DNA from: Alphaproteobacteria bacterium
GTDB taxonomy: Bacteria; Pseudomonadota; Alphaproteobacteria; UBA828; JAPUJA01
Assembly (NCBI GenBank): GCA_965249645.1
Contig: CBDFML010000010.1
Location: 488,232 to 552,231 of the forward strand
Length of the DNA stretch: 64,000 nt
Direction: 5' to 3'
The position numbers were made by a program, and so were the translations under genes. Under the pieces are notes generated by a model that saw nothing but the letters and a program-made list of their open reading frames with translations, was not told the origin of the DNA and ran no database searches. This document shows positions 21,704 to 41,098 of the stretch, piece after piece (the stretch's first letter is position 1; every line of letters begins with the position of its first letter).

Positions 21704-21711
21704 AATGGAAC

Positions 21712-23128: not shown

Positions 23129-23168
23129 AACCCGGGCGATTCCAGCTTGTCGGATTCCGCCCCAGGGG

Positions 23169-23807: not shown

Positions 23808-23911
23808 GATTCTCCTTTCCGCACCGCCCGCGTACGGGCTTTGGTCAGCGCGTTCTGTCAGAGTCGCCCGCAGCATACCCGAATCATCGTTCCGGTTATA
23901 GGATAGCGGGG

Positions 23912-25489: not shown

Positions 25490-26446
25490 TTAGACGAGGG
25501 TCCCGCTCTGGCGCACCGCCCGGCCCGTGCTGTTGACCAGATACACCGCCACCAGCAGAAGGGCCAGCGCCGCCCAGACCCACACCGAATGAACCTCGCC
25601 GAACAGCAGAATGCCCCACCCCACGCCCGTCAGCGTCGCCAGATTATCGACGATCGACAAGTACACGGGCCCCGACAGGCGGATCAGCTCGAGCAGGACG
25701 AACCACATGGCCGCCTGGGAGAGCGTGATGCCGATTAGCGCGCCGTCGCCGGCGTCCAACGGTGCCCCAAACCACCACCAGCTGTCCGTCGCCGCGACGA
25801 TCGGCAGCATCAGGATCGCCGAGGCGCTCAGCGTGCCCGCCGCGAGTTCGAGCGAACCCATCGTCGGAAATCGCAGCCGTGCGATGCCGACCGCGCTCAG
25901 CGAGAATGAGGCTGGCGCCGCCAAGGCGAGCACGACCCAGCCCACCATGTCGCGGCTCGGCAGGCTGGAATCGGGCAGCACGATCAACAGCACGCCGGCG
26001 AAGCCCAGCAAGATGCCGAGCAGCCTGATGAAAAGAAACACTTCGAGCCGCGTGCCGAGTGCGAAGACGTAGGTGAACAGGGGGACCATCGCCAGTGTCA
26101 GACCGACGATCCCCGCGGGCAGCCTAGGCGCGACGAAGGCATAGATTTAATAGGGCACCACCATGCCGAACACCGACATACCAAGATAGATCCAAAGCGC
26201 GCGCCGGTCGCAGCGGGGAAACCGGTGATGGAACGCGCCGTAGGTGGCGAGCAGCAGAAGCGCCGCGCCGGCGCACTGCCAGAAGACATAGGCGATGAAC
26301 GGGATGCCCGCGGTGATCCCGATCCGGTTGAGCGAGAACGACAGGCCGAAAATCGCGGCCATGAAGGCGATGATGCCCAGCGGCGCGAATCGGGACCGCC
26401 GATAGAGCGGTGCGAAACCTGAAGTGTCGATGCCGGGGTCTCCCAT
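25490..26446 (-). pseudogene. EamA/DMT-family permease with an in-frame TAA (26147..26149)
   Basis: ORFs 26147..26497 and 25490..26089 are in the same frame. The read-through gives ..GMVVPY*IYAFVAPRLPAGIVGLTLAMVPLFTY.., i.e. one 10-TM-type DMT protein split in two. Confidence 0.75.
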
Positions 26447-26508
26447 CGCTCGGCTGTAACATTCATCGCCCATAGGAACAATGAGCGATCCGACCAAAGA
26501 GGGTCATC

Positions 26509-27000
26509 ATGGGCGGAAAAACGATGCCGATTACCGGCGGACGCGCGTGCGGCGCGATCCGCGACGAGGCAACCGAGCCGCCACAAGAGGTTGGCTATTG
26601 CCATTGCCGGATGTGCCAGAAAGCTACCGGCAACCTATTCTATCCGTGGGCCATGTTTGGGAGCGACGCATTTCGGATAACAAAGGGCGAGCCGACGTTC
26701 TATAAATCCTCGGCCTTGGCGGAACGCGGCTTCTGTGCGAATTGCGGCACGCAAATGGCTTTTCACTATCTCAGTGACCGCGTGTTCCGGGCGTCTATCG
26801 GTAGCCTAGATCATCCGGAAGATTGGCCGCCGAGTGTCCGTGCTGGCGTTGGAAGCCAGATACCGTGGTTGACCATCCATGACGACCTTCCCCGCATGCG
26901 CACCGAAGAGTGCCCCGAGTTCGCCGCGGCGAAGGCCTCAACGCTCACGGGGGTTTTTAGATCTCCCCAATCGGCCGGTACGTCGATAAGTCGGCCCTGA
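26509..27000 (+). CDS. GFA-family (glutathione-dependent formaldehyde-activating / CENP-V-like) protein; the 3' tail reads into an antisense gene relic
   Basis: GYCHCRMCQKATG and FCANCGTQM zinc motifs. The first motif reads GGRACG where GGCxCG is usual. The last roughly 20 codons are antisense to the binding-protein relic, so the native C-terminus may be lost. Confidence 0.65.
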   Translation: MGGKTMPITGGRACGAIRDEATEPPQEVGYCHCRMCQKATGNLFYPWAMFGSDAFRITKGEPTFYKSSALAERGFCANCGTQMAFHYLSDRVFRASIGSLDHPEDWPPSVRAGVGSQIPWLTIHDDLPRMRTEECPEFAAAKASTLTGVFRSPQSAGTSISRP

Positions 27001-27473
27001 CGGTAAGTATCCGGGGTCGCGAAGACTTCGCCTCATTTCCTCAAAGCCCACCAATGCGGAAGTCCGGGGCAAAGCGGTTCCGCATATCCGGGATAGACCC
27101 ATCCTCCGGACCCCTCCATGCCGGTCAACCCGAGCACTTCGAGTGTCCCGTCGTCGACGCCCTTAAAGTACCCCTCGCCGATGGTCACTTCCCATATCTC
27201 CAACGCCGCCGTCAGATCGCCCTCGCCTATGGCTGTGAGCTGGGGAATGTAACCGGCTGTAATGTATTCGATGTTGTAGCCCATCTTCGTGAGCAGCTTG
27301 CCGGCGATTGTCGTGATGATGATCTGGCTGCTCCAGTCATTCATCGCGAGTTTGATCGCATCGCCGGATTCTGGAATGTCGGTAGCCTGCGCTGCCGCCA
27401 CGCCAACGGCGCTCGTCGCCAACGCAAAACACAGACAGGCCGACGCAATCGAACGCCGAATGACGCTCTTCAT
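26930..27473 (-). pseudogene. Truncated paralog of the adjacent betaine-type substrate-binding protein (in-frame TGA at 27033..27035, C-terminal half deleted)
   Basis: MKSVIRR..IPESGDAIKLAMNDWSSQIIITTIAGKLLTKMGYNIEYITAGYIPQLTAIGEGDLTAALEIWE parallels the 27851..28840 product. After the TGA the frame continues GEVFATPDTYRQGRLIDVPADWGDLKT, then similarity ends. Confidence 0.8.
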
Positions 27474-27850
27474 TTCGACCTCCCTATTAATTGATTTGTT
27501 CTTCCAATCCACCCACTCGGCGGCCGCTGCCTGACGCACCGGCCGGTGGATTACACAAAGCGTTACCCCACGGCGATAATTTGGGTTGCGCGTGCTTGCA
27601 ACTACAAGACGCTTCCTGACGCGCCCTCTCTGTGCAAAAGCTCGCCCTATCAAGTATCAATGTCGGTGATTGTCTGTTCGTCGCTCTCAGGCAAGCTAAT
27701 GTTCAGATCCATACCTCACTGCGCTCTCCATAGCGCCGCCCATTGCCTTTAGCGGTCGCTATGGTGAGCCAAATTGCATTGCTACGGCCCGAAATTTCGT
27801 GATCCAGACCTCAGGATTTAATCTTGGCACAACATCGCGCGGCGCATGAA

Positions 27851-28840
27851 CTACAGGGCCGCCTCATCGATCCAGACGCTCCAATTCGCCTCGTTGTCCG
27901 CAATCCACTGGTCGGTCAAATCATCCAGGCTCTCGCCGCCCAGTTCAAAGGCATGCATCATCGCGATGTCGTCCTCGGTCGAGATCTGGAACGCCTTGAG
28001 GAACCGGTAGGCTCCGGGCCACTTGTCCTTCATCCCGGGCCAAGCCACCTTTGTGATCGGCAATGCTGCTTCCGTGCAGTCGTAAGCGAGGTCGGGATTG
28101 GGACCCCAGGAGGGATCTTCCCAGCACGCGTCTTCGTATGCAGGCTCATCGAGGTGTTGCAGATCGTATTCGGCAAAGACCCAGTGCGGCCACCACAGGT
28201 AGATCAACAAGGGCGTCTGGGACTGGAAGGCTGCCTTGACTTCGGCCATCATCGCGCCTTCGCTTCCTCCCTTAACGACCTGAAAGTCTATTTCATAGGC
28301 CGCAACGCGTTCGACGGTTTTGAAGTCACCCCAATCCGACGGTTGATCGATGACACGGCCTTGCGGGTAGGTATCGGGCGTGGCGAACACTTCGGCACAG
28401 TCTTGCAGAGCCCGAATGTCGGGAAGCCCGGGGCAAAGCTCCTCGGCGAATCCCGGATAAACCCAGCCGGCCGCCCCTTGCATGCCGGTCAACCCGAGTA
28501 TTTCCAGCTTGCCTTCTTCAATGCCCTTAAAGTACCCCTCGCCGGCGCTGACCTCCCACATTTCCAGAGTGGCCGTCAGATCACCGAAGCCGATTGCCGT
28601 CAGCTGGGGAATATAGCCCGCTGTGACGTACTCGACGTTGTAGCCCATTTTCGTAAGCAACTTTCCTGCAATCGTCGTTATAAGGTTCTGACTGCTCCAG
28701 TCATTCATGGCGAGAATTACGGGGTCGTCTGACTCCGGAATGTCGCCGGCCTGTGCGGGCGCCACACCGGCAACGGCAGTGGCCATCAATAGCGAAAACC
28801 CAACGGCTGCGATCGAATTCCTGCGGAAACGATTTTTCAT
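27851..28840 (-). CDS. ABC substrate-binding protein, glycine betaine/proline betaine (ProX/OpuAC) family
   Basis: 329 aa with a signal peptide (AVGFSLLMATAVAGVAPAQA) and a ProX-like body (MNDWSSQ.., LLIYLWWPHWV). Confidence 0.85.
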   Translation of the reverse strand: MKNRFRRNSIAAVGFSLLMATAVAGVAPAQAGDIPESDDPVILAMNDWSSQNLITTIAGKLLTKMGYNVEYVTAGYIPQLTAIGFGDLTATLEMWEVSAGEGYFKGIEEGKLEILGLTGMQGAAGWVYPGFAEELCPGLPDIRALQDCAEVFATPDTYPQGRVIDQPSDWGDFKTVERVAAYEIDFQVVKGGSEGAMMAEVKAAFQSQTPLLIYLWWPHWVFAEYDLQHLDEPAYEDACWEDPSWGPNPDLAYDCTEAALPITKVAWPGMKDKWPGAYRFLKAFQISTEDDIAMMHAFELGGESLDDLTDQWIADNEANWSVWIDEAAL

Positions 28841-29085
28841 CTCATGCTCCCGAATAGTTTCGTTCGGAAAGCCGACGTTTAGCGACGTACCCGATGAATT
28901 AGTACTTCGGGTGCTCGCCCCGCTCGCCAGTGTCCGCTGAATCGGATTGCAGCAGGAATTGTGTAGCGTTACCCCAAGAGGACGTGGCGAAATACGTGGA
29001 AGCGATGGCGGTCGTCTCCGCCAGAAGCATCATGTCAGACTCTCCCTCGAGAGGCTGCGCGGTTCCCTGAGCTCGTCTGATTCCA

Positions 29086-29130
29086 AGAGCCGAGCTTACC
29101 CTTTAATTGTTTGAGCCGAGCTTACCCTTT
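29086..29130. repeat. Two tandem copies of GAGCCGAGCTTACCCTTTA (period 26) in a divergent promoter region
   Basis: Exact 19-mers at 29086..29104 and 29112..29130, between the binding-protein gene (-) and the SnoaL-like gene (+). Confidence 0.8.
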
Positions 29131-29314
29131 ATTCTTTTTTTTGAAAGTATAGACCTGAATTCTTGATGGGCGCAAGAATGATTCATCGAATTCGGGATCG
29201 AACCCGGATTGGAGGGGGAGATCAGCTTGGCTCAGACCGCTGCCACCCCGAATTTTGACAACCGCGCCGCGATGGGCTGGCGCTGCTCCTGGCTCGTCCA
29301 GCGGGCCTCGATCC

Positions 29315-29731
29315 ATGGATGACGACAAAAACATTGTTACGGTAAACGAATGGTTCCGTCTTCTTGCCGAGGGCGAATATGACGCCATGCACGCGCTGCA
29401 CACCGACGATATCGTCTGGGAGGTGATCACGGGCGGGTCGGAAAAAATCGTGCCGTGGCTGGGACGTTTCGAAGGGCGTGAGGGCGTTGACGATTGCCTG
29501 CGCCTGTTTGCCGACGCCGTCGAAAGCGAGAAATTCGACACGGGGGAGGTCATGACCGGGGCTAACGGCCTCGTAATAATGCTGGGCACGGTCGATCTGA
29601 GGGCCTATCACAACGGTAAACGGTTTCGCATCGAGATCGCCGAGCTCTTCCGCTTTCGGGATGGCAAGATTGCGTTTGTGAAGGTATACGCAGACAGCGC
29701 TGCAGCGCGGGTTGCGTTCAAGGATCGCTGA
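29315..29731 (+). CDS. SnoaL/NTF2-like fold protein
   Basis: MDDDKNIVTVNEWFRLLAEGEYDAMHALHTDDIVWEV..FRFRDGKIAFVKVYAD. ATG at 29315 within ORF 29255... Confidence 0.65.
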   Translation: MDDDKNIVTVNEWFRLLAEGEYDAMHALHTDDIVWEVITGGSEKIVPWLGRFEGREGVDDCLRLFADAVESEKFDTGEVMTGANGLVIMLGTVDLRAYHNGKRFRIEIAELFRFRDGKIAFVKVYADSAAARVAFKDR

Positions 29732-29744
29732 GACCCGCAGCGAG

Positions 29745-30827
29745 TTGAGGAGCAACGCTACGCGAGCCGCACGATTTCACGAGCCGGGCAAACCGCTCAT
29801 CATCGAAGAGATGGCGGATCCCGAACTGCAGCCGGGCACGGCTATCGTTCGCGTGCTAGCCGCTTTCGTGCCGCCCTACTGCGCAGAGATGTTCGACGGT
29901 CGGGCGTTTTATCCCCTTCCGCCACTGCCCTTTACACCAGGCATGGACACCATTGGCGAGCTGCTCGAGGTTGCCGATGACGTCTCTGGTCTCGAGGTGG
30001 GCGAACGTGTTTTCTGTGATCATTTTTACAATGCGGTGAATGTCGGAGGCCGGGCGGAATCCTGCTATATCGGGGTATTCGGCAAGGGCGAGCGGTCTCA
30101 GAAAATTCTTGCCCGTTGGCGTGATGGCAGCTTCGCCGAAAAAATGATCCTGCCCGCCGAGTGCTTCATTCCGTTAGGCGCGGCCGCTTCGGTCGATCCC
30201 GCAAAGCTCGTGCGCATCGGCTGGTTCGGAACCTGCTACGGAGCGATGATGCGCTCGACCTTCCGGCCGGGCCACACGGTTCTGATCAATGCGGCGACCG
30301 GGCTGGTCGGGTCAGCCGGCGTGCTGCTGGCACTGGCCTTGGGAGCGGGCCGCGTCGTCGCGCTCGGACGCAAGCAAGCCGTACTCGACGAACTCTGTGC
30401 GCTCGATTCCAAACGGGTCACGGGGCTCGCAATATCCGGCGCGCCGGCCGACGCCGAGGCGATTATCGAGGCGGTTGGCGGCGGAGCCGATATCCTGCTC
30501 GATTGCATAGGACATGTTCCCGACCCCACGACAACCCAGAACGCGCTTGCTGCGCTGGCACCTTATGGCTGTGCACTTTTCGTCGGAGGCTGCGTCGGCG
30601 AACTCGCTATCAGCTACAAATGGGTACTCGATAAGCAGATCACGATCCTGGGCTCGAGTTGGTACCCCCGTGAAGGCAACGCAGAAATGTTCAGCATGAT
30701 TGGCACGGGCGCCCTCGATGTGGAAGCGCTTCGCGCCCGGGTATTTTCCCTGGATGAAGTCAACGAGGCCGCCCAGTGGGCAGAGCACGGTTCGGGTGGC
30801 CTCGAGCACGCTGCCTTGGTACCATGA
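29745..30827 (+). CDS. Medium-chain (zinc-type/quinone oxidoreductase-like) dehydrogenase; start codon unclear
   Basis: ..AARFHEPGKPLIIEEMADPELQPGTAIVRV.. and a Rossmann segment LINAATGLVGSAG. The canonical N-terminus would start at the in-frame ACG at 29760, which follows a perfect AGGAG (29748..29752). Alternatives are TTG 29745 or ATG 29712. Confidence 0.7.
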   Translation: MRSNATRAARFHEPGKPLIIEEMADPELQPGTAIVRVLAAFVPPYCAEMFDGRAFYPLPPLPFTPGMDTIGELLEVADDVSGLEVGERVFCDHFYNAVNVGGRAESCYIGVFGKGERSQKILARWRDGSFAEKMILPAECFIPLGAAASVDPAKLVRIGWFGTCYGAMMRSTFRPGHTVLINAATGLVGSAGVLLALALGAGRVVALGRKQAVLDELCALDSKRVTGLAISGAPADAEAIIEAVGGGADILLDCIGHVPDPTTTQNALAALAPYGCALFVGGCVGELAISYKWVLDKQITILGSSWYPREGNAEMFSMIGTGALDVEALRARVFSLDEVNEAAQWAEHGSGGLEHAALVP

Positions 30828-30998
30828 GCGCCGCTATTGTCGGGGGCCCTGAGGCAGGGTGGCGCGCCCGATCGGGGAATTCTTGGAAAATATCGTGGCG
30901 GGCACCGTCTCATCCGTCATCATTGAGAATGGGGCAACGCCCTAGGATAAACAGTGCGGTAAGATAGCCTTAAAATATGCCGAGAAAGGAGGCGTCCG

Positions 30999-32294
30999 AT
31001 GGAAGTCACAGAGGCCGATACGGCACGGAATTTCACGCCGCCGCCGCCCGCTCAATTCGTGAATCTGGAACGTGCCCGGTCGGTCATGTCCGAGCTACGG
31101 TTGGACGCCCTCGTCGGCACCACTGACGAAAACCTCTACTACCTATCCGGCCACGCGCCGGACTCGGTGCTGGCCCATTTCTGGGACACCTGGGCGGCTG
31201 CCATCTTGCCCCGCGAGCGAGACGCCGCGCCTTGCCTCGTGGTTTCCGAATACGACCTTGCCTATTGCGTCACCCATCCCACCTGGATGCCGGAAGTGAG
31301 GACGTATGGCGCAAGTTGGAGCAGCGCCGCATCTTTGCTGGACAAGATCAACGAGGGGGTTGGAATCGATACCGACATCCGGGAAGCGTTGCGGACGCTC
31401 TATCGTCAAACCCAGGAGAACAAGTCGCCGGACCTCGTCGATGCAATTGCGCGCTATATCAATAACGAGCTTTCATCAGGCTCGTTGCGGGTCGGATTCG
31501 ACGACCTTCGGGTAGCTGCTGCTGTGGGTGAGCGCATCGGCAATCGGCTTGAGGTCGTCGACGGACTGCAACCGCTCCGCAAAATTCGTCAGGTGAAGAC
31601 GCCACCCGAAATTGACTTGTTACGCAAGGCGGCTCAGATTAACGACGAAGCGCTCAACGAAGTGGCGGCGGCCATCTCCGAGGGGAGGCCCTTGTACGAT
31701 ATGGTTCGGGCATACCGCGAGGGGGTAACCAAGCGGGATGCCAAGCCGATGGGCGAACACGGCATGCTGTTTAGTGCGGGGCCTGATGGCGGTTTCGTGC
31801 TCGATCACAACTACATTGAACGCAAGCGGTTTGCCAAAGGCGACGCGGTCGTGCTCGATGCAATTTGCACCTACCGAATGTATCACGCCGACATGGCCAG
31901 GACGGCGACCGTGGGCGAACCGCGCAAGCGTCACCTGGAGCTTCATGAGGCGGTAAAGACGGCGCTGGAGATTGCCGAAGATCGGTTACGACCTGGCGCG
32001 CGAACCGTGGACGCGGTGGAAGCCGCAGCCGACGTCCTCCGTAAACACGGGCTGGATCCAGACGCAATGACGCTGGTGTTCCACCCGATCGGCTTGAACA
32101 TATTCGATTACGCATCGCCAGAAGACGGATTTGTGGGCTGGGTCATCGAATCCGACACGGTAATGAATTTCGAGGTGTTCAATCGTGATCCCGAATTTGG
32201 CGGCATGCATCTCGAGGATACCGTGCTGGTGACAGATCGCGGATTGGACCATTTTTCGACTTTTCCGCGGGAAATCGTCGTTGCGGCAAATTAG
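30999..32294 (+). CDS. M24-family metallohydrolase with creatinase/prolidase N-domain (Xaa-Pro peptidase / creatinase / ectoine-hydrolase-like)
   Basis: 431 aa with a strong RBS GGAGG. Pita-bread motifs with all five metal ligand positions apparently present (VVLDAI, HADMART, FHPIG, NFEVF, HLEDTVLVT). Confidence 0.8.
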   Translation: MEVTEADTARNFTPPPPAQFVNLERARSVMSELRLDALVGTTDENLYYLSGHAPDSVLAHFWDTWAAAILPRERDAAPCLVVSEYDLAYCVTHPTWMPEVRTYGASWSSAASLLDKINEGVGIDTDIREALRTLYRQTQENKSPDLVDAIARYINNELSSGSLRVGFDDLRVAAAVGERIGNRLEVVDGLQPLRKIRQVKTPPEIDLLRKAAQINDEALNEVAAAISEGRPLYDMVRAYREGVTKRDAKPMGEHGMLFSAGPDGGFVLDHNYIERKRFAKGDAVVLDAICTYRMYHADMARTATVGEPRKRHLELHEAVKTALEIAEDRLRPGARTVDAVEAAADVLRKHGLDPDAMTLVFHPIGLNIFDYASPEDGFVGWVIESDTVMNFEVFNRDPEFGGMHLEDTVLVTDRGLDHFSTFPREIVVAAN

Positions 32295-32372
32295 ACCGGA
32301 TGGCTGCTCCGGTTTTTATGAACTGGATTCTGCCACGCCAAGCAATGACTGGAAGAATGTGTATCCCAGTCT

Positions 32373-33542
32373 GTGACAGTGGGGATTGATCTCAAGGTGG
32401 CAACGGGAAATCGAGTTTCGGGAAACGCTCCGACCGATCTCTTGCCGGTGTCCGTGCTGACGGGTTTTCTGGGAAGCGGCAAGACGACAATATTGTCCCG
32501 ACTTCTCCATGATCCGGGCATGGCCAATACCGCGATTATCGTCAACGAATTCGGCGAGGTTGGACTTGATCACCTTATCGTGGAGAAGGGCGAGGAGGAC
32601 GTCGTGCTCCTCGACGCGGGCTGTCTCTGCTGCGCTGTAAGCGATTCTCTCAGCGATACGCTGACCAATCTCTTTTTCCGCCGTGTGCGCGGCGATGTTC
32701 CCTCCTTCGAGCGCGTAATAATCGAAACGAGCGGCCTCGCTGACCCGGCTCCGATCCTCCACGCTCTGGTAATGGATCAGTTCGTGTCATCCCACTTTTT
32801 CCTGGATGGAATAATTGCGACCGTGGATGGCGTCCACGGATTCAACCAGTTGGATGACCACGAGGAGGCCGTCAAGCAGGCGGCCTTCGCCGAGCGTATC
32901 GTCATTACCAAGTCCGATCTCGTTGCACTCAATGACATCGCGGCCTTGCGCGAACGATTGAACGGAATGAACGATGGCGCGAGGATTCTAGAGGCCGCGA
33001 AGGGACACGTGGAACCCGCTTGCATATTGAACGTCGGTCTTTTCGACCTGAGCAAGAAATCCGCCGACGTGCAGCGATGGTTGCGTCAAGAAGCCGTTGG
33101 GGGCCATGGCCACGACACTCGAGATGCCGCTCACGGAAACTCCGAGGAACTGAGTGAGCATGCGGGATCGCGGAACCACAAGTCCGGGCGTCACAACGAG
33201 AAGATTCAAACCTTCTGCGTCGACTTCGATTTCCTCGTGACCTGGGCCAGCTACGCCGACTGGGTCGCTTCAATGGAAAGGATTCCGAGTGAAAATCTCC
33301 TGCGCGTTAAGGGTCTGATCGGCATCGCAGGCAGCGACCGACCCTACGTCATCCAGGGGGTACGGCACATCTTCAGCCCGCCGATCAGGCTGAAGAGCTG
33401 GCCCCAGGACATTCACGAATCTCGCCTAATCTTCATTACCTACGATTTGGATCGTTCTCTCGTTGAGGCAACGCTGGGAGCGCTCAGGGCGCCCGAAGGA
33501 TTACAGGGCACCGGCATGCTCGAAGACGCCCTTAAAATATGA
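32373..33542 (+). CDS. COG0523-family GTPase metallochaperone (CobW/ZigA-like)
   Basis: GFLGSGKTT Walker A, GCLCCAV metal motif, ETSGLADP, a His-rich linker (GGHGHDTRDAAHG..) and the CobW_C-like end. Confidence 0.88.
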   Translation: MTVGIDLKVATGNRVSGNAPTDLLPVSVLTGFLGSGKTTILSRLLHDPGMANTAIIVNEFGEVGLDHLIVEKGEEDVVLLDAGCLCCAVSDSLSDTLTNLFFRRVRGDVPSFERVIIETSGLADPAPILHALVMDQFVSSHFFLDGIIATVDGVHGFNQLDDHEEAVKQAAFAERIVITKSDLVALNDIAALRERLNGMNDGARILEAAKGHVEPACILNVGLFDLSKKSADVQRWLRQEAVGGHGHDTRDAAHGNSEELSEHAGSRNHKSGRHNEKIQTFCVDFDFLVTWASYADWVASMERIPSENLLRVKGLIGIAGSDRPYVIQGVRHIFSPPIRLKSWPQDIHESRLIFITYDLDRSLVEATLGALRAPEGLQGTGMLEDALKI

Positions 33543-33733
33543 GGAGAGCCGCTTCGAACGCACCGGTCGGATTCGCTAGTGGTGCGCGGACCGGTCGGTC
33601 CCGGTCACCCATTCCCGTGGCCTTGCTCGAGTAGGCGGCCGGTGCCGTGTATGCCTGAGCTCGGTGATCGCTCTGTTGAATCGCCGAGCGTGCAAAGGAA
33701 AAGTAGTTTACTGATCGAGTGAAGGAGGTTTCG

Positions 33734-35098
33734 ATGAATTTCGATTGTATCGTCGAAAACGGCACCGTCGTCTTTCCTGAGCGCGGAGAGGTCGAGGCCG
33801 ACATCGCCATCCGCGACGGCAAGTTTGCTGGTATCCTTCGACCGGGCGAAGAGGCGCCGGGCACTGCCGAAAGAATCGACGTGGCGGGTAAGCACGTATT
33901 TCCCGGCATCATCGACGCCCATGTCCATTTTGGCTTCGCCGAGCCCCTGACCGAATACAGTACCGAGACGATGACGGCGGCGATCGGCGGGGTGACGACC
34001 ATACTCGCATATTTTCTCAACAATGAATCTTACAGGGACGTCTTCGCGGATCAGCTTGGCGAAGTGGAATCCCGTGCCTACGTCGATTTCGGCTTCCACT
34101 TCTCTACGGCGAAGGACATCCACTTGGATGAGCTCGAAAGCTACGTGAAGGAGTGCAACGTCACCTCGTTCAAATATTTCATGAACTTCAAGGGCGAAGC
34201 AGGGAGGTATCTAGGCCTTGACGGCACCGACGACGGCTACATGTATGACCTGCTACAGGAAGCAGCGCGCATAAAGGACATCGTCATTGTCATTCATCCC
34301 GAGAACATCGAGCTCGTCAATCGCTTCCGGCAGCGTTTCATGGAAGAGGGCCGCGAGGGCTTGCGGGCATATAGCGAATCAAAACCGGACTTTACGGAAA
34401 CCGAGAACACCATGCGGGCCATGGCATTCGCGGAACATCTAGGCGCGCGCATTTATTTCCCCCACGTGAGCTGCTCCTCAAGCCTAAGGGAGGTTCAGCG
34501 TTTTCGCGAACGCTATGAACATGTGCACCTTGAGACCTGCCCCCACTATCTGACCCACACCATGGACGCGGACTTGGGGAGCATCGGCAAGGCTAACCCG
34601 CCGTTGCGCACCCAGCAGGATGTCGACGCCCTTTGGGAGGGCTTGGCTGATGGATCGATCGATGTGGTCGCTTCGGATCACGTTCCCCGCAAAAAAGCGA
34701 CCAAGGAAAAATCGATCTGGCAGGCTTCCCAGGGTTTCCCCGGGACGGCAATAATACTTCCGGTTCTTCTGAGCGAGGGCTACCACAAGGAGCGCCTCAC
34801 TTTGCAACGCATCGCCCAGCTCGTGACGGCCCGGCCCGCCGAGATTTTCGGCATTGAGAAGAGGAAGGGTCGCATTGCCGAGGGGGCCGATGCGGACCTG
34901 ACCATCGTCGATCTCGACCTTGAGCGCAAAGTGCACGCCGAGGAATTGGCGTCCTATTCGGACTACACGCCGTATGAAGGGTGGACCCTTAAGGGCTGGC
35001 CTGTCCTCACCATGGTCCGTGGCGACGTGGTTATGCGGGACGGCAAAATCGTTGGGAAAAAAGGCTACGGACAATATTTGCGCCGTCCTTTAACGTAA
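33734..35098 (+). CDS. Cyclic amidohydrolase (dihydropyrimidinase / hydantoinase / allantoinase family)
   Basis: MNFDCIVENG..PGIIDAHVHF, FKYFM (carboxylated-Lys position), HPEN and ASDHVP. The ATG at 33734 follows GAAGGAGG; the GTG at 33719 in the track overlaps that RBS. Confidence 0.85.
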   Translation: MNFDCIVENGTVVFPERGEVEADIAIRDGKFAGILRPGEEAPGTAERIDVAGKHVFPGIIDAHVHFGFAEPLTEYSTETMTAAIGGVTTILAYFLNNESYRDVFADQLGEVESRAYVDFGFHFSTAKDIHLDELESYVKECNVTSFKYFMNFKGEAGRYLGLDGTDDGYMYDLLQEAARIKDIVIVIHPENIELVNRFRQRFMEEGREGLRAYSESKPDFTETENTMRAMAFAEHLGARIYFPHVSCSSSLREVQRFRERYEHVHLETCPHYLTHTMDADLGSIGKANPPLRTQQDVDALWEGLADGSIDVVASDHVPRKKATKEKSIWQASQGFPGTAIILPVLLSEGYHKERLTLQRIAQLVTARPAEIFGIEKRKGRIAEGADADLTIVDLDLERKVHAEELASYSDYTPYEGWTLKGWPVLTMVRGDVVMRDGKIVGKKGYGQYLRRPLT

Positions 35099-35159
35099 CG
35101 GTGAATCTCGAGGAACCACGAGCGGATCGCTCAATTAAGCGAAAGCAAGAGAGCCCATC

Positions 35160-36053
35160 GTGGCACAGAAAAGCCGCACTCTGAGCACTGCCTTTAAGGA
35201 GACCGTCCAACGTCGGCAGGCGCTGATCGTCCCCGGGGCGCCAAATGCCTTGACGGCCCGGCTGATCGAAGATCTGGGGTTCGAGGCTGTTTATATAACC
35301 GGCGCCGGCGTGACCAACATGCATCTGGGGGTGCCGGACATCGGATTGATCACACTGACCGAGCTCGCTGATCACGTCGGGGCAATCCACGATGTGGTTT
35401 CCCTGCCGCTGATCGTCGACGCCGACACGGGCTTCGGCAATCCCGTTAACGTGACTCGCACGGTAAAGGTTTTGGAACGCAACGGTGCCAACGGGATCCA
35501 GCTGGAAGACCAGGCGTTTCCAAAACGCTGCGGGCACTTTTTGGGGAAAAACGTCATTCCCGTCGAGGAGATGGTTCAAAAACTCAAGGCTGCGACGGAC
35601 ACCCGGCGGGATCCGGATTTGCAAATCATCGCTCGTACCGATGCCCTGGAGAAGCTTGGGATCAATGCCGCATTAGATCGCGCTGCGGCATATGTGGAAG
35701 CGGGGGCGGACATTACCTTCGTCGACGCGCCGGAAAATATCGGTGAGTTGAGAGCCATAGCAAGCGCTCTGAAAGTCCCGCAGGTGGCGAATATGGTCGT
35801 GGGCGGAAAAACGCCGCTGGTCGGCCGGTCCGAGCTCAGCGAGATGGGTTTCGCCGTCGTGCTCTATGCGAACGCGGCCTTGCAGAGCGCCCTATACGGC
35901 ATGCAGGCTGTGCTATCGGAGCTTTACAAAGAGGGGTCTCTCGAGGCCGTCCGTGAACTGCTTACTCCGTTCGGTGAGCGCCAGCGGCTTGTCGGCAATT
36001 CCGAATTCGATGCTTTGGAGGAGAAGTACCAGACGGAACCTGGGGCGAAATAG
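35160..36053 (+). CDS. Isocitrate lyase/PEP mutase superfamily lyase (2-methylisocitrate lyase / dimethylmalate lyase-like)
   Basis: PGAPNALTARLIE, IVDADTGFG, IQLEDQAFPKRCGH and ARTDA. Confidence 0.82.
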   Translation: MAQKSRTLSTAFKETVQRRQALIVPGAPNALTARLIEDLGFEAVYITGAGVTNMHLGVPDIGLITLTELADHVGAIHDVVSLPLIVDADTGFGNPVNVTRTVKVLERNGANGIQLEDQAFPKRCGHFLGKNVIPVEEMVQKLKAATDTRRDPDLQIIARTDALEKLGINAALDRAAAYVEAGADITFVDAPENIGELRAIASALKVPQVANMVVGGKTPLVGRSELSEMGFAVVLYANAALQSALYGMQAVLSELYKEGSLEAVRELLTPFGERQRLVGNSEFDALEEKYQTEPGAK

Positions 36054-36136
36054 TCACGCTCCAGTATGGAATTAATGTGGTTGGCCCCGAAGGGGGCGTA
36101 TGAAGCGGGCCCTGAATAACCAGCCAGGAGACTTTC

Positions 36137-36832
36137 ATGCGACCATGGGATGGGATTATCAGCGAGGAAGAGCAAGAAGCCTATCGTGCCGTCGGATTCG
36201 GCAAGACCTCGGGTATCGGCAGCTGTCCCGCCTTGCTCATCATCGACGTTCAGTACCGGACGGTTGGCACCAAACCGCAGCCCTTTTGGGAGGCCATCAA
36301 GGAGTTTCCCACTAGTTGCGGCGATGTGGCGTGGGAAGCCGTCGAAAAAATCAAACCTCTTCTAGCGACGTTCCGGGAGCAGGGCTGGCCGGTGCTCTAT
36401 CCCCATGTGGCGCCAAAGCAAAGCCACGATGCCGGACGGCTGGCCGAAAAAGTGCCCGCGATTATGACGGTCTCGAAGAAGGGTTATGAATTCGTGGCCG
36501 ACATCGCGCCGGTTGAGGGTGAAATCCTCTTGCCCAAGAAGCATCCAAGTGCGTTCTTCGGTACGCCGTTGGCAAGTCACCTGATCGACCTGGGAGTCGA
36601 CACGTTGTTCATTACCGGCTGCACCACGAGCGGCTGCGTTCGCAGTACGGTCGTTGATGCCTTCTCCTATAACTTCAAATTGGTTGTGCCGGAGGATTCC
36701 GTCTACGACCGCAGCAAGGTTTCCCACGCGGTCAATCTGTTCGATATGTCGGAAAAATACGCCGATGTCATGCCGCTGACGGACGCACTGTCTCTCTTGG
36801 CAAAATTGCCAGCAAAGAATACGGCCGGCTGA
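36137..36832 (+). CDS. Isochorismatase-family cysteine hydrolase (N-carbamoylsarcosine amidase / RutB / nicotinamidase-like)
   Basis: LLIIDVQY (Asp), LPKKHPSAFF (Lys) and ITGCTTSGCVRSTVVDA (Cys): the full D-K-C triad pattern. Confidence 0.8.
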   Translation: MRPWDGIISEEEQEAYRAVGFGKTSGIGSCPALLIIDVQYRTVGTKPQPFWEAIKEFPTSCGDVAWEAVEKIKPLLATFREQGWPVLYPHVAPKQSHDAGRLAEKVPAIMTVSKKGYEFVADIAPVEGEILLPKKHPSAFFGTPLASHLIDLGVDTLFITGCTTSGCVRSTVVDAFSYNFKLVVPEDSVYDRSKVSHAVNLFDMSEKYADVMPLTDALSLLAKLPAKNTAG

Positions 36833-36849
36833 ATTGCCATGCTTAGGGG

Positions 36850-37614
36850 CTAATCGACCCAGAGTCCGCCGTTTATGTCCATGATTTCACCGGTTATGTA
36901 GTCCGACCCTTCGGCGGCAAGGAAAAGAATTGCTTCGGCCACGTCTTCGACCGTGCCCATGCGGCCAACGGGGATGAGTTGTTTCAGGCTATCGGGGAAC
37001 GTTGTCGTCATCTCAGTGGCGATCGGTCCAGGAGCCACGGCATTCACGGTTATCCCGTCTGCGGCTAGTTCCTTCGCCAAGTACAGTGTCATCGCATGAA
37101 CGCCGGCCTTCGAGACCCCGTAGGCTATGTTGGCGGCTTGCTCCTGTTCCTCCCGATCCAGCCACGGACGCGCGTTGCCTCCACTTTTCCCTGTGACCGA
37201 TCCGATGTTGAGGATCCTTCCATAATGTTGGGCACGCATCGGCGGAATTACCGACCGACAGCACAGGAAGGTGCCCTTCAGGTTGACGGCAAGCACTCGG
37301 TCCCATTCCTCTTCCGAGAGATGTTCGGCCGCGCCGTGCGACACGACGCCGGCAACGTTCACCAGGACATCGACACGGCCGAATTTATCCAGCACTTCGC
37401 CGACCGCCGCTTGAACCTGACTGCTGTCGGTAACGTCCACTTCGATGCTTGCGGCCCGCACGCCCGCTGCTCGAAGGTCTGTGGCGAAAGACTTCGTCGA
37501 TTGCTTGTCGATCAGCGATAACGACGCGTCTTCACGGGCAAAAGCGCGCGCCGTGGCAGCACCTATTGCACCGGCTGCCCCAGTAACAATTACGACCCGG
37601 TTACTGAACCCCAT
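36850..37614 (-). CDS. Short-chain dehydrogenase/reductase
   Basis: VVIVTGAAGAIGAA, NVAGV and YGVSKAG motifs. Confidence 0.88.
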   Translation of the reverse strand: MGFSNRVVIVTGAAGAIGAATARAFAREDASLSLIDKQSTKSFATDLRAAGVRAASIEVDVTDSSQVQAAVGEVLDKFGRVDVLVNVAGVVSHGAAEHLSEEEWDRVLAVNLKGTFLCCRSVIPPMRAQHYGRILNIGSVTGKSGGNARPWLDREEQEQAANIAYGVSKAGVHAMTLYLAKELAADGITVNAVAPGPIATEMTTTFPDSLKQLIPVGRMGTVEDVAEAILFLAAEGSDYITGEIMDINGGLWVD

Positions 37615-37769
37615 CTCAATTCCTCATCTGGGCATCGAAGATTCTCCGCAGCGCAGTCAGTCCCCGTGGAGAGGGAGGCACCTTTCGTCGGTCAATGAGA
37701 GAGCTATCCCAAGAGATGCCGTCTTCCGCTGACAGGCATTGTCGCATGATTCGCTTCTTGGGCGATGCT

Positions 37770-37922
37770 ATGTCTCAATTCAAGCCCGGCGCTCTTGCTA
37801 CGACCACGGCAGTAGAGGAGCTTTTGCCGGTCATCGTAGGTCGTGAGAGTCTATTGCCGGTAAGCGACGACGGTCGGATAATCGGTCAAATCACACCGTC
37901 TTGCATGATTAAGCCTCTTTCA
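37770..37922 (+). pseudogene. Relic of the C-terminal CBS region of a ProV-type ABC ATPase
   Basis: ..TTTAVEELLPVIVGRESLLPVSDDGRIIGQITPSCMIKPL resembles a single CBS motif, exactly where proV would precede proW. No Walker/ABC part remains. Confidence 0.45.
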
Positions 37923-38016
37923 CGTCATCGAAGTGGAGCTTGCCCAGATGGACGACATTGGCACTCGCGTGACGACAGCCGATGGCTAGTCGAGACCATC
38001 TGCGACCGAGGTTACG

Positions 38017-40107
38017 TTGATGCTGACCAGCGGCCGCTTTACCCGACGCATCGAACGCGAGTTCTATCCCTGGATCCTTGTCGGCCTGGGCGTATTCGTG
38101 TGCTTCCTGCTTCGAGATGAAGTCAGTTGGCTACTCACCTTTCCGAACGGTATCCAACTTCCCATCTCCGACTGGATCAATGTCTTTATGGATTGGTTCG
38201 TCGCAACATTTCGCTGGTTGTTTCGCGCAATTTCATGGACCCTCGGTTGGCCGATGACCTGGCTTCAAGGCCTGTTCCACTGGTTGCCCTGGCCCGCCAC
38301 GATCACGATGCTGGTTGCGTTCGCCTACGCGGCCAAGGGCTGGAAGCTTGCGTTGTTTACGGCCTGCGCGCTGCTCTACATGGTCGTCATTGGATACTGG
38401 GAAGAAAGTATGAGGACGCTGGCATTGGTCGGCGTTTCAGTGCCTCTCTCGGGCCTGAGTGGAGGCGCAGTGGGGCTACTCGCGTTTCGATACCGCCTTG
38501 CCCGCAAAATCATCGAACCCCTTCTCGACCTTATGCAAGTCGTCCCAACCTTCGTCTATCTGATTCCCGCGTTGCTGCTATTTGGCTTTGGTCCCGTGGT
38601 CGGAATTATTGCCAGCGCTATTTACGCGGCTCCGCCAATGGCCCGCAACATGATATTGGGATTGAGCCGCGTGCCAAAGGACGCCGTAGAATCGGGTCAA
38701 ATGTCGGGCGCGACGAACCTGCAGTTGCTCTGGTGGATCCAGATCCCTTCGGCGATGCCAACTATCATAATTGGCATCAACCAGACCATCATGGCCGCGT
38801 TCGCCATGGTAATCATCGCGGCGGTCATCGGCGGTTCGGCGGATATCGGCTGGGAAGTCCTGAGCTCTATGCGCCGGGCGCGTTTCGCCGAGAGCTTGCT
38901 CTCGGGCGTCGTTATCACGTTGATGGCGATGATCATGGATCGAGCCAGCCGTGCTTTTGCCGAACAGCGGGGTAAATTGCGCCTCAAGACCGACTCGTTC
39001 TGGCAACGCCATCGAAATCTCTGTATTTCGATTGCTGTTGTCGGGGGCATGATCGTTCTCGGCAAGTTCATCGATCCGATGCGCGCCTGGCCCGAATCCC
39101 TGGTGTTCTTTCCGACCGAACAGATAAATAACGGGCTCCGATTTCTTATCGAAAATTACAGCTTCGTCTTCAACACCATCAAAAAGTGGTCTCTGTTCTA
39201 TTTCATGATGCCCATACGCTTGGGACTTGAAGGATCGGTTCGGCCACATTCTTGGGGATTTGAACTCACCCTGCCAATCAGTCTGGCTTACGCCGGCGTG
39301 ATAACGACGTTCACTCTTGTCGGGCTGAAATTCTACGGATGGCGGGTTTGCGTCAGCATCGCGGTCATTGGTGCGATGCTCTATTTCGGGATCACAGCCA
39401 CTCCTTGGCCGGCCTTTATCGCCGTCGTCACGCTCATCGCCTGGCAGACTGGTGGCTGGAAGCTCGGCGTCGGAAGCCTTCTGGGGTTGGCCTTCATGTT
39501 GCTCACGGGAGTGTGGGAACAGGCGATGCTTTCGGTCTATCTGTGCGGCGCGGCCGTGTTCCTTTCGTTCGTCGTGGGCTGCTCGCTTGGCGTCTGGGCT
39601 TCGCACAACGATAGCGTCTCGGCCTTCCTGCGGCCGATCAACGACACATTTCAGTCGATGCCACTTTTCGTCTTCCTGATTCCCGTCGTCATGTTCTTCA
39701 AGATCGGTGATTTCACCGCATTGCTGGCGATCGCCGCCTACGCCATTGTCCCGGGAATTCGCTATACAGAGCACGGCATCCGAAATGTCCAGCCCGATAT
39801 TGTTGAAGCGGCCCGGGCACTGGGATGCACCAAGCGCCAGATTTTCTGGCAAGTCGAGCTCCCGCTTGCCCTCCCGGAAATAATGCTGGGTCTGAACCAA
39901 ATCGTCATGTTCGCTCTCGCCATGCTCGTTATCACCTCTCTCGTGGGCACCAAAGGGTTGGGCATGTTGGTCTACGTGGCGCTCAGTTCGGCGGATGTTG
40001 GCAAGGGTTTCGTCGCGGGGCTATCCATGGCGTTGATCGCCATCATTATCGATCGCATCATTCAATCCTGGAGCAATAAGAAGAAAGTCGAACTCGGGCT
40101 GGCCTAG
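38017..40107 (+). CDS. ABC permease, ProW-type, tandem-fused (two BPD_transp_1 modules)
   Basis: 696 aa. Two repeats of the EAA-loop region (ESGQMSGATNLQLLWWIQIPSAMP and EAARALGCTKRQIFWQVELPLALP). Confidence 0.85.
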   Translation: MMLTSGRFTRRIEREFYPWILVGLGVFVCFLLRDEVSWLLTFPNGIQLPISDWINVFMDWFVATFRWLFRAISWTLGWPMTWLQGLFHWLPWPATITMLVAFAYAAKGWKLALFTACALLYMVVIGYWEESMRTLALVGVSVPLSGLSGGAVGLLAFRYRLARKIIEPLLDLMQVVPTFVYLIPALLLFGFGPVVGIIASAIYAAPPMARNMILGLSRVPKDAVESGQMSGATNLQLLWWIQIPSAMPTIIIGINQTIMAAFAMVIIAAVIGGSADIGWEVLSSMRRARFAESLLSGVVITLMAMIMDRASRAFAEQRGKLRLKTDSFWQRHRNLCISIAVVGGMIVLGKFIDPMRAWPESLVFFPTEQINNGLRFLIENYSFVFNTIKKWSLFYFMMPIRLGLEGSVRPHSWGFELTLPISLAYAGVITTFTLVGLKFYGWRVCVSIAVIGAMLYFGITATPWPAFIAVVTLIAWQTGGWKLGVGSLLGLAFMLLTGVWEQAMLSVYLCGAAVFLSFVVGCSLGVWASHNDSVSAFLRPINDTFQSMPLFVFLIPVVMFFKIGDFTALLAIAAYAIVPGIRYTEHGIRNVQPDIVEAARALGCTKRQIFWQVELPLALPEIMLGLNQIVMFALAMLVITSLVGTKGLGMLVYVALSSADVGKGFVAGLSMALIAIIIDRIIQSWSNKKKVELGLA

Positions 40108-40117
40108 CGTGCTGGCT

Positions 40118-40380
40118 ACGGCTTTAACGGCGGATCGTTCCATCGTCAAGGCTCACCGCGCGGCAGCCGGCGCAAAAGGGGGGAACTGGCGCAGGATATC
40201 GGCCGCTCACGCGGCGGCCGCACAAGCAAGGTTCACGCCGTAGTCGATGAACACGGTCGTCCCCGGCGCTTTGTCATCACCGGCGGTCAGGTTCATGACG
40301 GTCAAGTCCTGCCGGATCTTCTCGAAAGCGCCGCTTGCCGTCGTCGCCGACAAGGCTTACGGCTCACGCGCCATCCGCCA
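40118..40380 (+). pseudogene. Internal fragment of an IS5-family DDE transposase with frameshifts
   Basis: Pieced from three frames: ADRSIVKAHRAAAGAKGG / LAQDIGRSRGGRTSKVHAVVDEHGRPRRFVITGGQVHDGQVLPDLLES / AVVADKAYGSRAIRQ. There are no ends and no start. Confidence 0.7.
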
Positions 40381-40381
40381 G

Positions 40382-40402
40382 TGCACTTACAGTGCACTTA
40401 CG
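40382..40402 (+). repeat. Tandem 11-mers TGCACTTACA-GTGCACTTACG, right arm
   Basis: Identical to 21886..21906. Lies 45 bp from the tRNA 3' end. Confidence 0.55.
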
Positions 40403-40446
40403 AGCCGCTTGTAGGAATTGGGAATTTAGCTAAGTCATTGAAAGTA

Positions 40447-40491
40447 TGGTGCCGCCGGAGTGGATCGAACACTCGGCCTCGCCCTTACCAA
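40447..40491 (-). repeat. att repeat within the intact tRNA-Thr
   Basis: Identical to 21712..21756. Confidence 0.9.
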
Positions 40492-40521
40492 GGGCGCGCT
40501 CTACCACTGAGCTACGGCGGC
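40447..40521 (-). tRNA. tRNA-Thr (anticodon GGU)
   Basis: The hand-folded 75-nt cloverleaf is GCCGCCG-TA-GCTC-AGTGGTA-GAGC-G-CGCCC-TTGGTAA-GGGCG-AGGCC-GAGTG-TTCGATC-CACTC-CGGCGGC-A-CCA. Confidence 0.92.
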
Positions 40522-41098
40522 ACGGATACGGAGGGCGGAACTTGCCACACGCGAGTCTGCCGGGCAAGCATTCAGCCGAAAATTCCTTGACGAGCTGTGA
40601 GCGAATGCGCTTGCAATGGGCATTGATTCCTTTTTGGTGCGTGGGTCGGCATTGAAAAAATTCTCAAAACGCGAGTCGCGTAGCAAGCTGGATGCTGCTT
40701 CAAGCCGTGACGCGCATGCCCGCAAGCAGCGCCAAGCCGAATCGTTACGGGAAAACCTGCTCAAGCGAAAGCGCCAGCATCAGAACCGTTCGGATAGGCA
40801 ATCCGAAAAGACGCCAGACAGAGATTAATCCACTTTGCAATGGCAGTTGGGATGTCACTGTCTACCTCTATTACGTTGACGATTTGTCTCGCCAAAGCTT
40901 CCTTCCTGACCAATCCCTTTCCACGAATTACGTCATTCTAAACTCATTCATTTCCGACGACCTGTCGATTTCGGGTCCATAAGGCTCGCACGTCTCGTTG
41001 AGTTGAGGTAGAAGAGCCAGCCAACGACAGTGGATTCAAGGCTTCGAGCGTGACCGTCACTTGATGGCACGGCACGGGCCGTGTCGCGAGACGTCATC

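Follow-up and report, generated by a model that had tools for sequence, protein, structure and literature searches.

The 64-kb stretch of contig CBDFML010000010.1 analysed here (the window), from a member of the Alphaproteobacteria, carries seven consecutive same-strand genes at 29315-36832, which encode a SnoaL-like protein, a medium-chain dehydrogenase/reductase (MDR), an M24-family hydrolase, a COG0523-family GTPase, a cyclic amidohydrolase, a C-C lyase of the isocitrate lyase (ICL)/phosphoenolpyruvate (PEP) mutase superfamily and an isochorismatase-like cysteine hydrolase (Table 1). A first-pass annotation had described these genes as intact members of the named families, followed on the other strand by a short-chain dehydrogenase/reductase (SDR) gene, and Pfam, with all scores above gathering thresholds, and the open reading frames (ORFs) confirmed both points. 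The catalytic motifs that it had read as intact in the amidohydrolase, the lyase, the cysteine hydrolase and the M24 protein were verified by alignment. The gaps between the seven genes measure 13, 171, 78, 191, 61 and 83 nt, and no terminator-like site was found in any of these + strand gaps, an arrangement that is compatible with an operon and makes co-transcription possible. None of the products reached an NCBIfam equivalog cut-off, RefSeq names on plasmids were generic except for a single prpB label, and neither the PDB nor the searchable literature (gene combination, cyclic imide genes, citrazinate/isonicotinate, maleimide/hematinic acid, lyase specificity) held a characterised pathway with this set, in keeping with the earlier view of the combination. 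An exact-sequence look-up of the window amidohydrolase and cysteine hydrolase found neither on record.

Table 1. Features of the locus; all coordinates are positions in the 64-kb window.
Feature	Position	Strand	Basis or remark
SnoaL_2 (NTF2-fold) protein	29315-29731	+	138 aa; Pfam
MDR NAD(P)-dependent oxidoreductase	29745-30827	+	ORF opens at 29712; likely TTG start at 29745 gives 360 aa, the same length as the 98%-identical P0219
M24 (Creatinase_N + pita-bread fold) hydrolase	30999-32294	+	Pfam; five metal ligands present
COG0523 G3E GTPase (cobW + CobW_C), candidate metal insertase	32373-33542	+	Pfam, P-loop, GCLCC, His-rich linker; start must precede the P-loop (residues 31-38 of the ORF from 32373), which a 350-aa version loses
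Binuclear-metal cyclic amidohydrolase (dihydropyrimidinase (DHPase)/hydantoinase/allantoinase superfamily), distinct clade	33734-35098	+	ATG start, preceded by a good GGAGG Shine-Dalgarno sequence
ICL/PEP-mutase superfamily C-C lyase (KRCGH)	35160-36053	+	PEP_mutase Pfam
Isochorismatase-like cysteine hydrolase (D37-K134-C167)	36137-36832	+	NicF/N-carbamoylsarcosine amidase subgroup
SDR oxidoreductase	36850-37614	-	Convergent with the seven genes
OpuAC-type (betaine-type) ATP-binding cassette (ABC) substrate-binding protein	27851-28840	-	PF04069, E 9e-41; divergent from the enzyme genes
Fused double ABC permease (BPD_transp_1 x2)	38017-40107	+	Pfam
Left island border	21712-21756	n/a	45-nt direct repeat, 100% identity with 40447-40491; equals tRNA-Thr 3' half
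tRNA-Thr (GGT)	40447-40521	-	Its 3' half is the right-hand island repeat
Integrase remnant	22023-22709	+	PF13356 Arm DNA-binding domain only
Shared block	27787-40123	n/a	12.3 kb, ~97% identity to ENA metagenome contig locus L001
Tandem 26-nt repeats, two copies (GAGCCGAGCTTACCCTTTA...)	29087-29138	n/a	In the 475-nt divergent region between the OpuAC and SnoaL genes

The genes lie on a tRNA-Thr island, as had been proposed. The 3' 45 nt of the tRNA gene occur as perfect copies at both borders, which delimit an island of ~18.7 kb, and the integrase expected of a tRNA-linked genomic island is present as an arm-domain fragment, with no integrase catalytic domain found in the ORFs neighbouring it. 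Within the island, the OpuAC binding-protein gene, the seven enzyme genes, the SDR gene and the fused double permease form a block shared with a metagenome contig (L001; other loci are cited in the same way), and the match ends exactly at the two block borders, L001 being flanked on both sides by transposase genes. The M24 gene has 91% nucleotide identity to its L001 counterpart, with 0.35 synonymous substitutions per synonymous site (dS), and the other block genes have 96-99.8% identity and dS values of 0.01-0.10; the pooled ratio of non-synonymous to synonymous rates (dN/dS) between window and twin is ~0.16. The block genes are under purifying selection, yet the block has been patched by recombination. 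The twin also has a 97-nt tandem duplication across the M24 start (L001 7125-7317, corresponding to window 30956-31051), and its COG0523 gene differs from that of the window by indels, is called without the P-loop and may be damaged.

The seven-gene set is a mosaic, seen only in the window and in this 97% twin, which lies in a different genomic context. It combines three separately conserved modules: SnoaL-MDR, M24-COG0523(-cysteine hydrolase) and COG0523-amidohydrolase-lyase-cysteine hydrolase. The proposal that all seven genes form one conserved pathway unit was therefore not upheld. The last of these modules is a conserved and widespread core, and the conservation that the first-pass annotation had raised as a question was found in both genome and metagenome loci. 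These comprised 80 species-representative genome loci anchored on the amidohydrolase, scanned by tblastn with the window proteins, and 80 metagenome-contig loci anchored on the cysteine hydrolase, 61 of them at 59% identity or more and 22 of those at least 8 kb long. In the genome scan, the cysteine hydrolase (58-78% identity) was present in 28 of the 34 loci with an amidohydrolase at least 38% identical to that of the window and the lyase (53-64%) in 16 of the same 34. No cysteine hydrolase was found in the more distant, mainly archaeal, amidohydrolase loci of this 80-locus scan, and COG0523 adjoined the amidohydrolase only in the clade of at least 55% identity. The 61 closer cysteine-hydrolase loci contained the amidohydrolase in 22 cases, the lyase in 16 and COG0523 in 12, with the amidohydrolase in 13/22 and the lyase in 10/22 of the longer loci. 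In 25 non-redundant loci a COG0523 gene immediately precedes the amidohydrolase gene and has the same orientation. The amidohydrolase itself has more than 2,400 homologues; Alpha-, Beta- and Gammaproteobacteria supply many that are 60-71% identical to it. The core was found in these three classes and in Actinomycetota, and Methylobacterium, Variovorax and Hydrogenophaga carry it on megaplasmids.

The remaining genes of the block behave differently from the core. The SnoaL, MDR, OpuAC and permease proteins had a match in 0/80 cysteine-hydrolase-anchored loci, the M24 protein at 50% identity or more in one (L108), and in the amidohydrolase-anchored loci no ortholog-level match to any of these or to the SDR stood beside the core except in the 97% twin. 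The MDR family is small; a SnoaL_2-MDR pair occurs in L106 without the rest of the set, an MDR gene stands next to a glucose-methanol-choline (GMC) oxidoreductase gene between insertion sequence (IS) elements in L104/L105, and the plasmid search returned only 33%-identical, uninformative matches to the MDR and none to the M24 or SnoaL protein. The M24 family is likewise small, with ~95 representatives at 47-67% identity before a drop to 30%. These distributions are what would be expected if recombination and IS activity had stacked three unrelated modules, with at most the four-gene core cooperating, as are the uneven divergence of the M24 gene from its twin, the truncated integrase, the missing ABC ATPase, the lack of a detected regulator and the two longest gaps, which precede the M24 and amidohydrolase genes. 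Such an accretion is nonetheless somewhat unlikely as the whole account, given that all window ORFs are intact with a low pooled dN/dS, the gene order is the same in two different genomic contexts, the genes are not separated by terminator-like sites, and the added reductases and hydrolase resemble steps that, in a known pathway, come before the hydrolysis of an imide (PMC9304392). It overlaps with the pathway proposed below, since the mosaic itself is observed, and the non-core genes may be unexpressed or serve other substrates.

In other genomes the core recurs within a larger operon, consisting of a GntR/IclR regulator, the lyase, the cysteine hydrolase, a LivKHMGF-type ABC transporter, MmgE/PrpD, a flavin adenine dinucleotide (FAD) protein, a second MmgE/PrpD, in some cases COG0523, and the amidohydrolase. 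This operon is carried by Methylobacterium nodulans pMNOD02, a Variovorax sp. SRS16 plasmid, Bordetella muralis and several metagenome-assembled genomes, and its FAD protein is flavocytochrome c/fumarate-reductase-like, with TcuA and KstD scores below the cut-offs. Other settings include a CoA ligase, an acyl-CoA dehydrogenase, Amidohydro_2 and PrpD (L002/L009), a tripartite ATP-independent periplasmic (TRAP) transporter (L093), and binding proteins of the tripartite tricarboxylate transporter (TTT) family on Hydrogenophaga pBPS33-1, where the lyase is annotated prpB. In L095 a LeuCD-like aconitase pair lies directly before the lyase and is followed by HyuB/HyuA, a second isochorismatase and FmdA, and in L022 (Actinomycetes) the lyase, amidohydrolase and cysteine hydrolase occur with SDRs, a metallo-beta-lactamase-fold protein, a sugar-type ABC transporter and an MDR. 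Apart from the one prpB label, RefSeq product names in related loci are generic, and relatives of the amidohydrolase are named 'dihydroorotase family protein'. Substituted butenedioates or succinates are the substrates of PrpD, of aconitase-type hydratases and of fumarate-reductase-type flavoproteins, and the TRAP and TTT transporters carry carboxylates. The partners of the core would act on unsaturated or hydroxy di- or tricarboxylates, which favours an imide route. Two genes of the polysaccharide-deacetylase family, the family of known cyclic imide hydrolases (PMC11424739), stand beside lyase-COG0523-amidohydrolase in L091.

From gene content, intact residues, island borders and conservation patterns, all of which were observed directly, we infer every catalytic step and the substrate of a route that we favour tentatively, at slightly less than an even chance: ring opening of a cyclic imide gives a half-amide, removal of the amide group gives a substituted maleate/malate-type acid, and this acid is then cleaved, with COG0523 metallating the binuclear hydrolase or hydrolases. 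The amidohydrolase would open a cyclic imide or amide, candidates being a maleimide-, succinimide- or piperidinedione-type ring that is probably derived from an N-heterocycle and probably bears alkyl or carboxyl substituents. The cysteine hydrolase would release the amide nitrogen of the resulting half-amide as ammonia, leaving the substituted acid, and the lyase would cleave a 2-hydroxy acid to a 2-oxo acid and a carboxylic acid. Elsewhere this last step would follow PrpD- or aconitase-type hydration; in the window it may follow the MDR or SDR, or the ring may already be hydroxylated. The amidohydrolase would receive its metal from the COG0523 GTPase, as may the M24 protein encoded just upstream of that GTPase. 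The window-specific SnoaL-MDR, M24 and SDR proteins could carry out reductions, isomerisations or hydrolyses through which a particular precursor enters the core, and the seven genes would be the cargo of a mobile block in a decayed island, assembled from the three modules.

The components and the general logic of this route are already known, namely a cyclic amidohydrolase plus an amidase, an ICL-type lyase and COG0523 beside a metal hydrolase. Bacterial cyclic imide catabolism by an imidase plus a half-amidase is said to have been described by Ogawa and Shimizu. In fungal nicotinate catabolism an ene-reductase, an SDR, a cyclic imidase and an amidase act one after another, and bacteria open 2,3,6-trihydroxypyridine with a polyketide-cyclase-type (SnoaL-like) enzyme (PMC9304392); these precedents suggest plausible roles for the MDR, SDR and SnoaL genes of the window. 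The Aspergillus route through the HxnM imidase and the HxnN amidase follows the same logic of ring reduction/oxidation, imide opening and half-amide deamidation, with the window MDR and SDR as possible counterparts of HxnT and HxnW (PMC9304392). The enzymes are however non-homologous, a DHPase-superfamily enzyme and a cysteine hydrolase replacing a PuuE/polysaccharide-deacetylase-type imidase and an amidase-signature enzyme, and the window core adds a C-C lyase and a metallochaperone.

The amidohydrolase keeps its binuclear ligands (H63, H65, K147, H188, H244 and D315), which are invariant in the alignment, and shares its fold and the full ligand set (HxH, carbamylated Lys, H, H, D) with D-/L-hydantoinase/dihydropyrimidinase (EC 3.5.2.2). 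Its NCBIfam scores fall short of the cut-offs for TIGR02033 (281.7 against 393.25), allantoinase (273 against 357.85), dihydroorotase (267 against 482) and ErtD (274 against 650). The position five residues after the carbamylated Lys, which holds what we take to be the catalytic Tyr of D-hydantoinase/dihydropyrimidinase (Tyr155 in the Bacillus/Thermus enzymes), is Phe152 in the window protein and Phe or Asn in every cysteine-hydrolase-linked amidohydrolase, with a family-specific 7-residue insertion after it. The amidase encoded downstream comes from another family than the carbamoylases usual in hydantoinase systems. Imides are known substrates of DHPase-family enzymes, which hydrolyse phthalimide (PMC4437985) and 3-isobutylglutarimide (PMC13098106).

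The cysteine hydrolase, the most conserved member of the core, has an intact triad that is invariant in the alignment of homologues, and has this D-K-C triad and the motif GCTTSGCVR in common with NicF and N-carbamoylsarcosine amidase; it is far from reaching the RutB and BiuH NCBIfam cut-offs. Its solved relatives include 3ot4 (E 6e-31) and 4l07 (E 1.5e-24), listed by the search as isochorismatase-family proteins, of which we take 3ot4/3uao to be NicF and 4l07 to be the maleamate amidase of P. putida S16. Homologues at 44-58% identity sit in nic-type clusters, beside an xanthine dehydrogenase (XDH)-type hydroxylase, a NicC-like monooxygenase, a NicD-like hydrolase and a NicX-like dioxygenase, and the NicF clade is therefore placed as sister to the window cysteine hydrolase, a relationship that favours a half-amide (maleamate-type) substrate. 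At 59% identity or more, nic-type genes are nearly absent (one NicX-like match in 61 loci), and no NicAB-type hydroxylase, NicC, NicX or NicD gene was found in the window; in contrast to NicF, the window clade pairs with the binuclear amidohydrolase, the ICL-type lyase and COG0523. One locus (L179, 1849-10675) combines a nic-type cluster (NicC-, XDH- and NicX-like) with a cysteine hydrolase at 55% and a lyase ortholog at 54% identity, a hint at possible lyase action beyond maleate in such a pathway.

The catalytic loop of the lyase (K122-R-C124-G-H126) is intact and the equivalents of D58, D85 and D87 are conserved. It has the PEP_mutase fold, the Asp metal ligands and the K-R-C-G-H loop in common with PrpB, petal death protein and 2,3-dimethylmalate lyase, and with its GGKTPL motif, also found in petal death protein, it is nearer to that enzyme than to PrpB. 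Its clade keeps K(R/K)CGH, and V213, Q242 and F271 replace T212, R241 and R270 of PrpB, which presumably bind the succinate carboxylate; in Actinomycetota the second of these positions is R and the third W. A methylcitrate-cycle PrpB function was rejected on these residues, on the score against the PrpB equivalog TIGR02317 (287.9, cut-off 354.4) and on context: no citrate synthase (prpC) or PrpD gene was found in the window, and the lyase of a genuine prpBCD cluster in L008 has T, R and R at the three positions. The lyase that follows a LeuCD-like hydratase pair in L095 recalls the pairing of dimethylmaleate hydratase and 2,3-dimethylmalate lyase that Alhapel et al. reportedly described in Eubacterium barkeri in 2006.

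Several observations weigh against the imide route. The closest solved relatives of the amidohydrolase are the L-/D-hydantoinases 1gkr, 1nfg and 1gkp (E 1e-64 to 1e-72), and among solved structures the cysteine hydrolase has its best match in an N-carbamoylsarcosine amidohydrolase (26st, E 2e-31), to which it is as similar as to NicF. Orthologs of the cysteine hydrolase also stand beside M24-COG0523 in L097 and L108, in the order M24-COG0523-cysteine hydrolase and with 66-67%, 53-57% and 74-75% identity to the window proteins, and L097 adds genes for an ATP-dependent HyuA/HyuB hydantoinase/lactamase and for sarcosine-oxidase-like-domain (amine-oxidase-like) proteins. Lyase residue 189 (35724-35726) is Asp in the window and in L001 and Glu in all other compared orthologs; Glu also occupies this position in PrpB (E188) and petal death protein, and a 46%-identical paralog in L018 has Asp. 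A PrpD- or aconitase-type hydratase is absent from the window, so that the lyase substrate is unaccounted for there; with an ATPase missing from the transporter and no regulator found, expression and uptake are uncertain; and the gammaproteobacterial loci L005-L008 carry only COG0523 and the amidohydrolase.

Those similarities to hydantoinases and to N-carbamoylsarcosine amidohydrolase, the context in L097 and L108 and the Creatinase_N domain of the M24 protein would fit a ureide route, in which an ATP-independent, hydantoinase/dihydropyrimidinase-like opening of an (N-substituted) hydantoin or dihydropyrimidine, for example creatinine-derived N-methylhydantoin, is followed by an N-carbamoyl-amino-acid amidase step; a guanidino or tertiary-amide bond would be the target of the M24 protein, and the lyase would be a later add-on. 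This route is unlikely, because it does not sit well with the Phe/Asn replacement of the D-hydantoinase tyrosine in all cysteine-hydrolase-linked amidohydrolases, with the missed cut-offs for hydantoinase, allantoinase, dihydroorotase and ErtD, with recurrent PrpD, fumarate-reductase-like, aconitase-like and ICL-type partners that act on carboxylic acids rather than amino acids, with NicF as the nearest homologue group of interpretable context, or with the M24 metal ligands. As for the substrates suggested in the first-pass annotation, hydantoin/N-carbamoyl chemistry is less favoured than imide/half-amide chemistry, to which both the sister position of NicF and the partners of PrpD, aconitase and fumarate-reductase type point.

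The M24 protein was also considered as a creatinase. Creatinase combines a Creatinase_N domain with an M24 fold that lacks the five metal ligands; the window protein has the fold, but all five of its ligands (D, D, H, E, E) align to D209, D220, H284, E313 and E327 of P. furiosus prolidase, and its closest solved relatives are prolidases; the retained ligands led to rejection of a creatinase function. Elsewhere it sits in HyuA-HyuB-SDR-M24 modules.

The COG0523 protein has the P-loop GFLGSGKT, a GCLCC (CxCC) motif and a His-rich stretch (PF02492 141.7 bits, PF07683 58.4 bits), and its closest solved relative is YjiA. It is encoded between the M24 and amidohydrolase genes, and its closest relatives (53-57%) follow M24 genes elsewhere; therefore either or both of these enzymes may be its clients. 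The G3E features of P-loop, CxCC and CobW_C are common to it and to CobW, Nha3 and ZNG1. Like Nha3 (nitrile hydratase) it is encoded beside a metalloenzyme, and its M24 neighbour has the fold of METAP1, the client of ZNG1, whereas the candidate clients here, a binuclear cyclic amidohydrolase and an M24 hydrolase, belong to a catabolic cluster. The N-terminal CPxLxP motif of ZNG1 is not expected in bacteria. A 2024 review reports few client insights among bacterial COG0523 proteins beyond CobW and Nha3, and eukaryotic ZNG1 serving the M24-fold METAP1 (PMC11672702). Haas et al. (2009) listed COG0523 subfamilies that cluster with atzB-type hydrolases, or with a cyclic imide hydrolase and an amidase (PMC2770081 supplement); the list does not include the present cluster, and its "creatinase" clustering refers to COG1402 creatininase, not M24 (PMC2770081). 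Another type of cluster in Bradyrhizobium, Aminobacter, Hyphomicrobiales and Cucumibacter (L071, L072, L078 and L081) holds the three families within 12 kb, with a distant M24 protein (28-29% identity), amidohydrolase (36-38%) and COG0523 (38-41%), an independent co-occurrence.

COG0523 and the amidohydrolase could instead represent a zinc-sparing pair, a Zur-regulated, PyrC2-type backup for pyrimidine synthesis under zinc limitation in which the amidohydrolase is a dihydroorotase-like paralogue. The gammaproteobacterial loci with only these two genes, which also have a true prpBCD cluster nearby, apparently by coincidence, would fit such a pair. Zur-regulated PyrC paralogues beside COG0523 genes are documented, but the Zur-linked PyrC paralogue lacks zinc ligands (PMC2770081), whereas the window amidohydrolase family keeps all six, and this retention makes the pair very improbable. 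The 'dihydroorotase family protein' label on relatives is in its favour, but dihydroorotase equivalog cut-offs were missed, the family usually occurs in catabolic operons with transporters and GntR/IclR regulators, and no Zur-box-like palindrome was found in the window, a weak test as the generic consensus may not be the motif of the host.

A bolder version of the imide route would make the core triad plus COG0523 a widespread route for alkyl- or carboxyalkyl-substituted maleimides and succinimides, with COG0523 as the dedicated metal insertase of the amidohydrolase and the M24 protein; this is highly doubtful. Substrates that would go with it are, for example, hematinic acid and methyl-ethyl-maleimide, imides of oxidative tetrapyrrole breakdown, or reduced hydroxypyridine imides. 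A conversion of isonicotinate through citrazinate and 2,6-dioxopiperidine-4-carboxylate to tricarballylate, reportedly described by Kretzer et al. (1993), was set aside as a poor fit to a lyase without distal-carboxylate residues; it would suit the loci in which a CoA ligase and an acyl-CoA dehydrogenase accompany a TcuA-like flavoprotein.

The widespread core carries almost only generic annotation, and naming its substrate would fill a gap in bacterial N-heterocycle recycling. The recurrent COG0523-amidohydrolase and M24-COG0523 adjacencies provide two candidate chaperone-client pairs, and a dedicated COG0523 insertase, if true, would give bacterial COG0523 proteins their first catabolic client pair. 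The locus also calls for caution in annotation, as a coherent-looking island "operon" can be a recent mosaic of separately evolving modules, which matters when pathways are inferred from gene order alone.

The flanking betaine-type ABC genes noted in the first-pass annotation are present as far as the binding protein and the permease are concerned, and no ATPase gene was found in the shared block. The betaine-type substrate that these genes had been taken to hint at has little behind it, since the transporter lacks its ATPase and in other genomes the core is accompanied by transporters of the Liv, TRAP or TTT type. Just outside the shared block lies a second, truncated OpuAC gene (ORF 27033-27653, - strand), to which belong 300 nt at 26933-27232 that are 72% identical to part of the OpuAC gene (28297-28596); the truncated copy is evidence of a decaying transporter locus. 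No Pfam regulator domain was found among the island ORFs scanned, in line with the earlier statement that the island has no transcription factor gene, and no riboswitch was found by Rfam in 21000-41000. The tandem 26-nt repeats are a possible operator. A further 25-nt repeat with 80% identity occurs 14 nt upstream of the M24 start (30961-30985) and at 33523-33547; it was rejected as a shared regulatory site, one copy being simply the last codons of the COG0523 gene, and could be a recombination scar or chance.

Just inside the island ends is a 24-nt direct repeat (21886-21909 and 40382-40405, TGCACTTACAGTGCACTTACG[GA]GC), whose copies are 96% identical and lie 130 nt and 42 nt from the 45-nt attachment (att) repeats; it may be an arm-type binding site of the integrase. 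Between the permease stop and the tRNA-Thr gene, the + strand at 40320-40380 encodes ...VVADKAYGSRAIRQ, which resembles a DDE transposase fragment, and L001 has Transposase_mut genes at the equivalent place. Outside the block, 1.66 kb of the window (10258-11916) is 88% identical to L001 19706-21364, a Mu-transposase_C_2/IstB-type IS element, so that the same IS family is present in both genomes. Just outside the island, at 19741-20616 and 20975-21703, are an ORF that matches gene transfer agent (GTA) holin and terminase-N and a TENA/THI-4 gene, which point to an alphaproteobacterial host, and TENA/THI-4 genes also lie nearby on the L104/L105 contigs, which carry a 79% MDR homologue.

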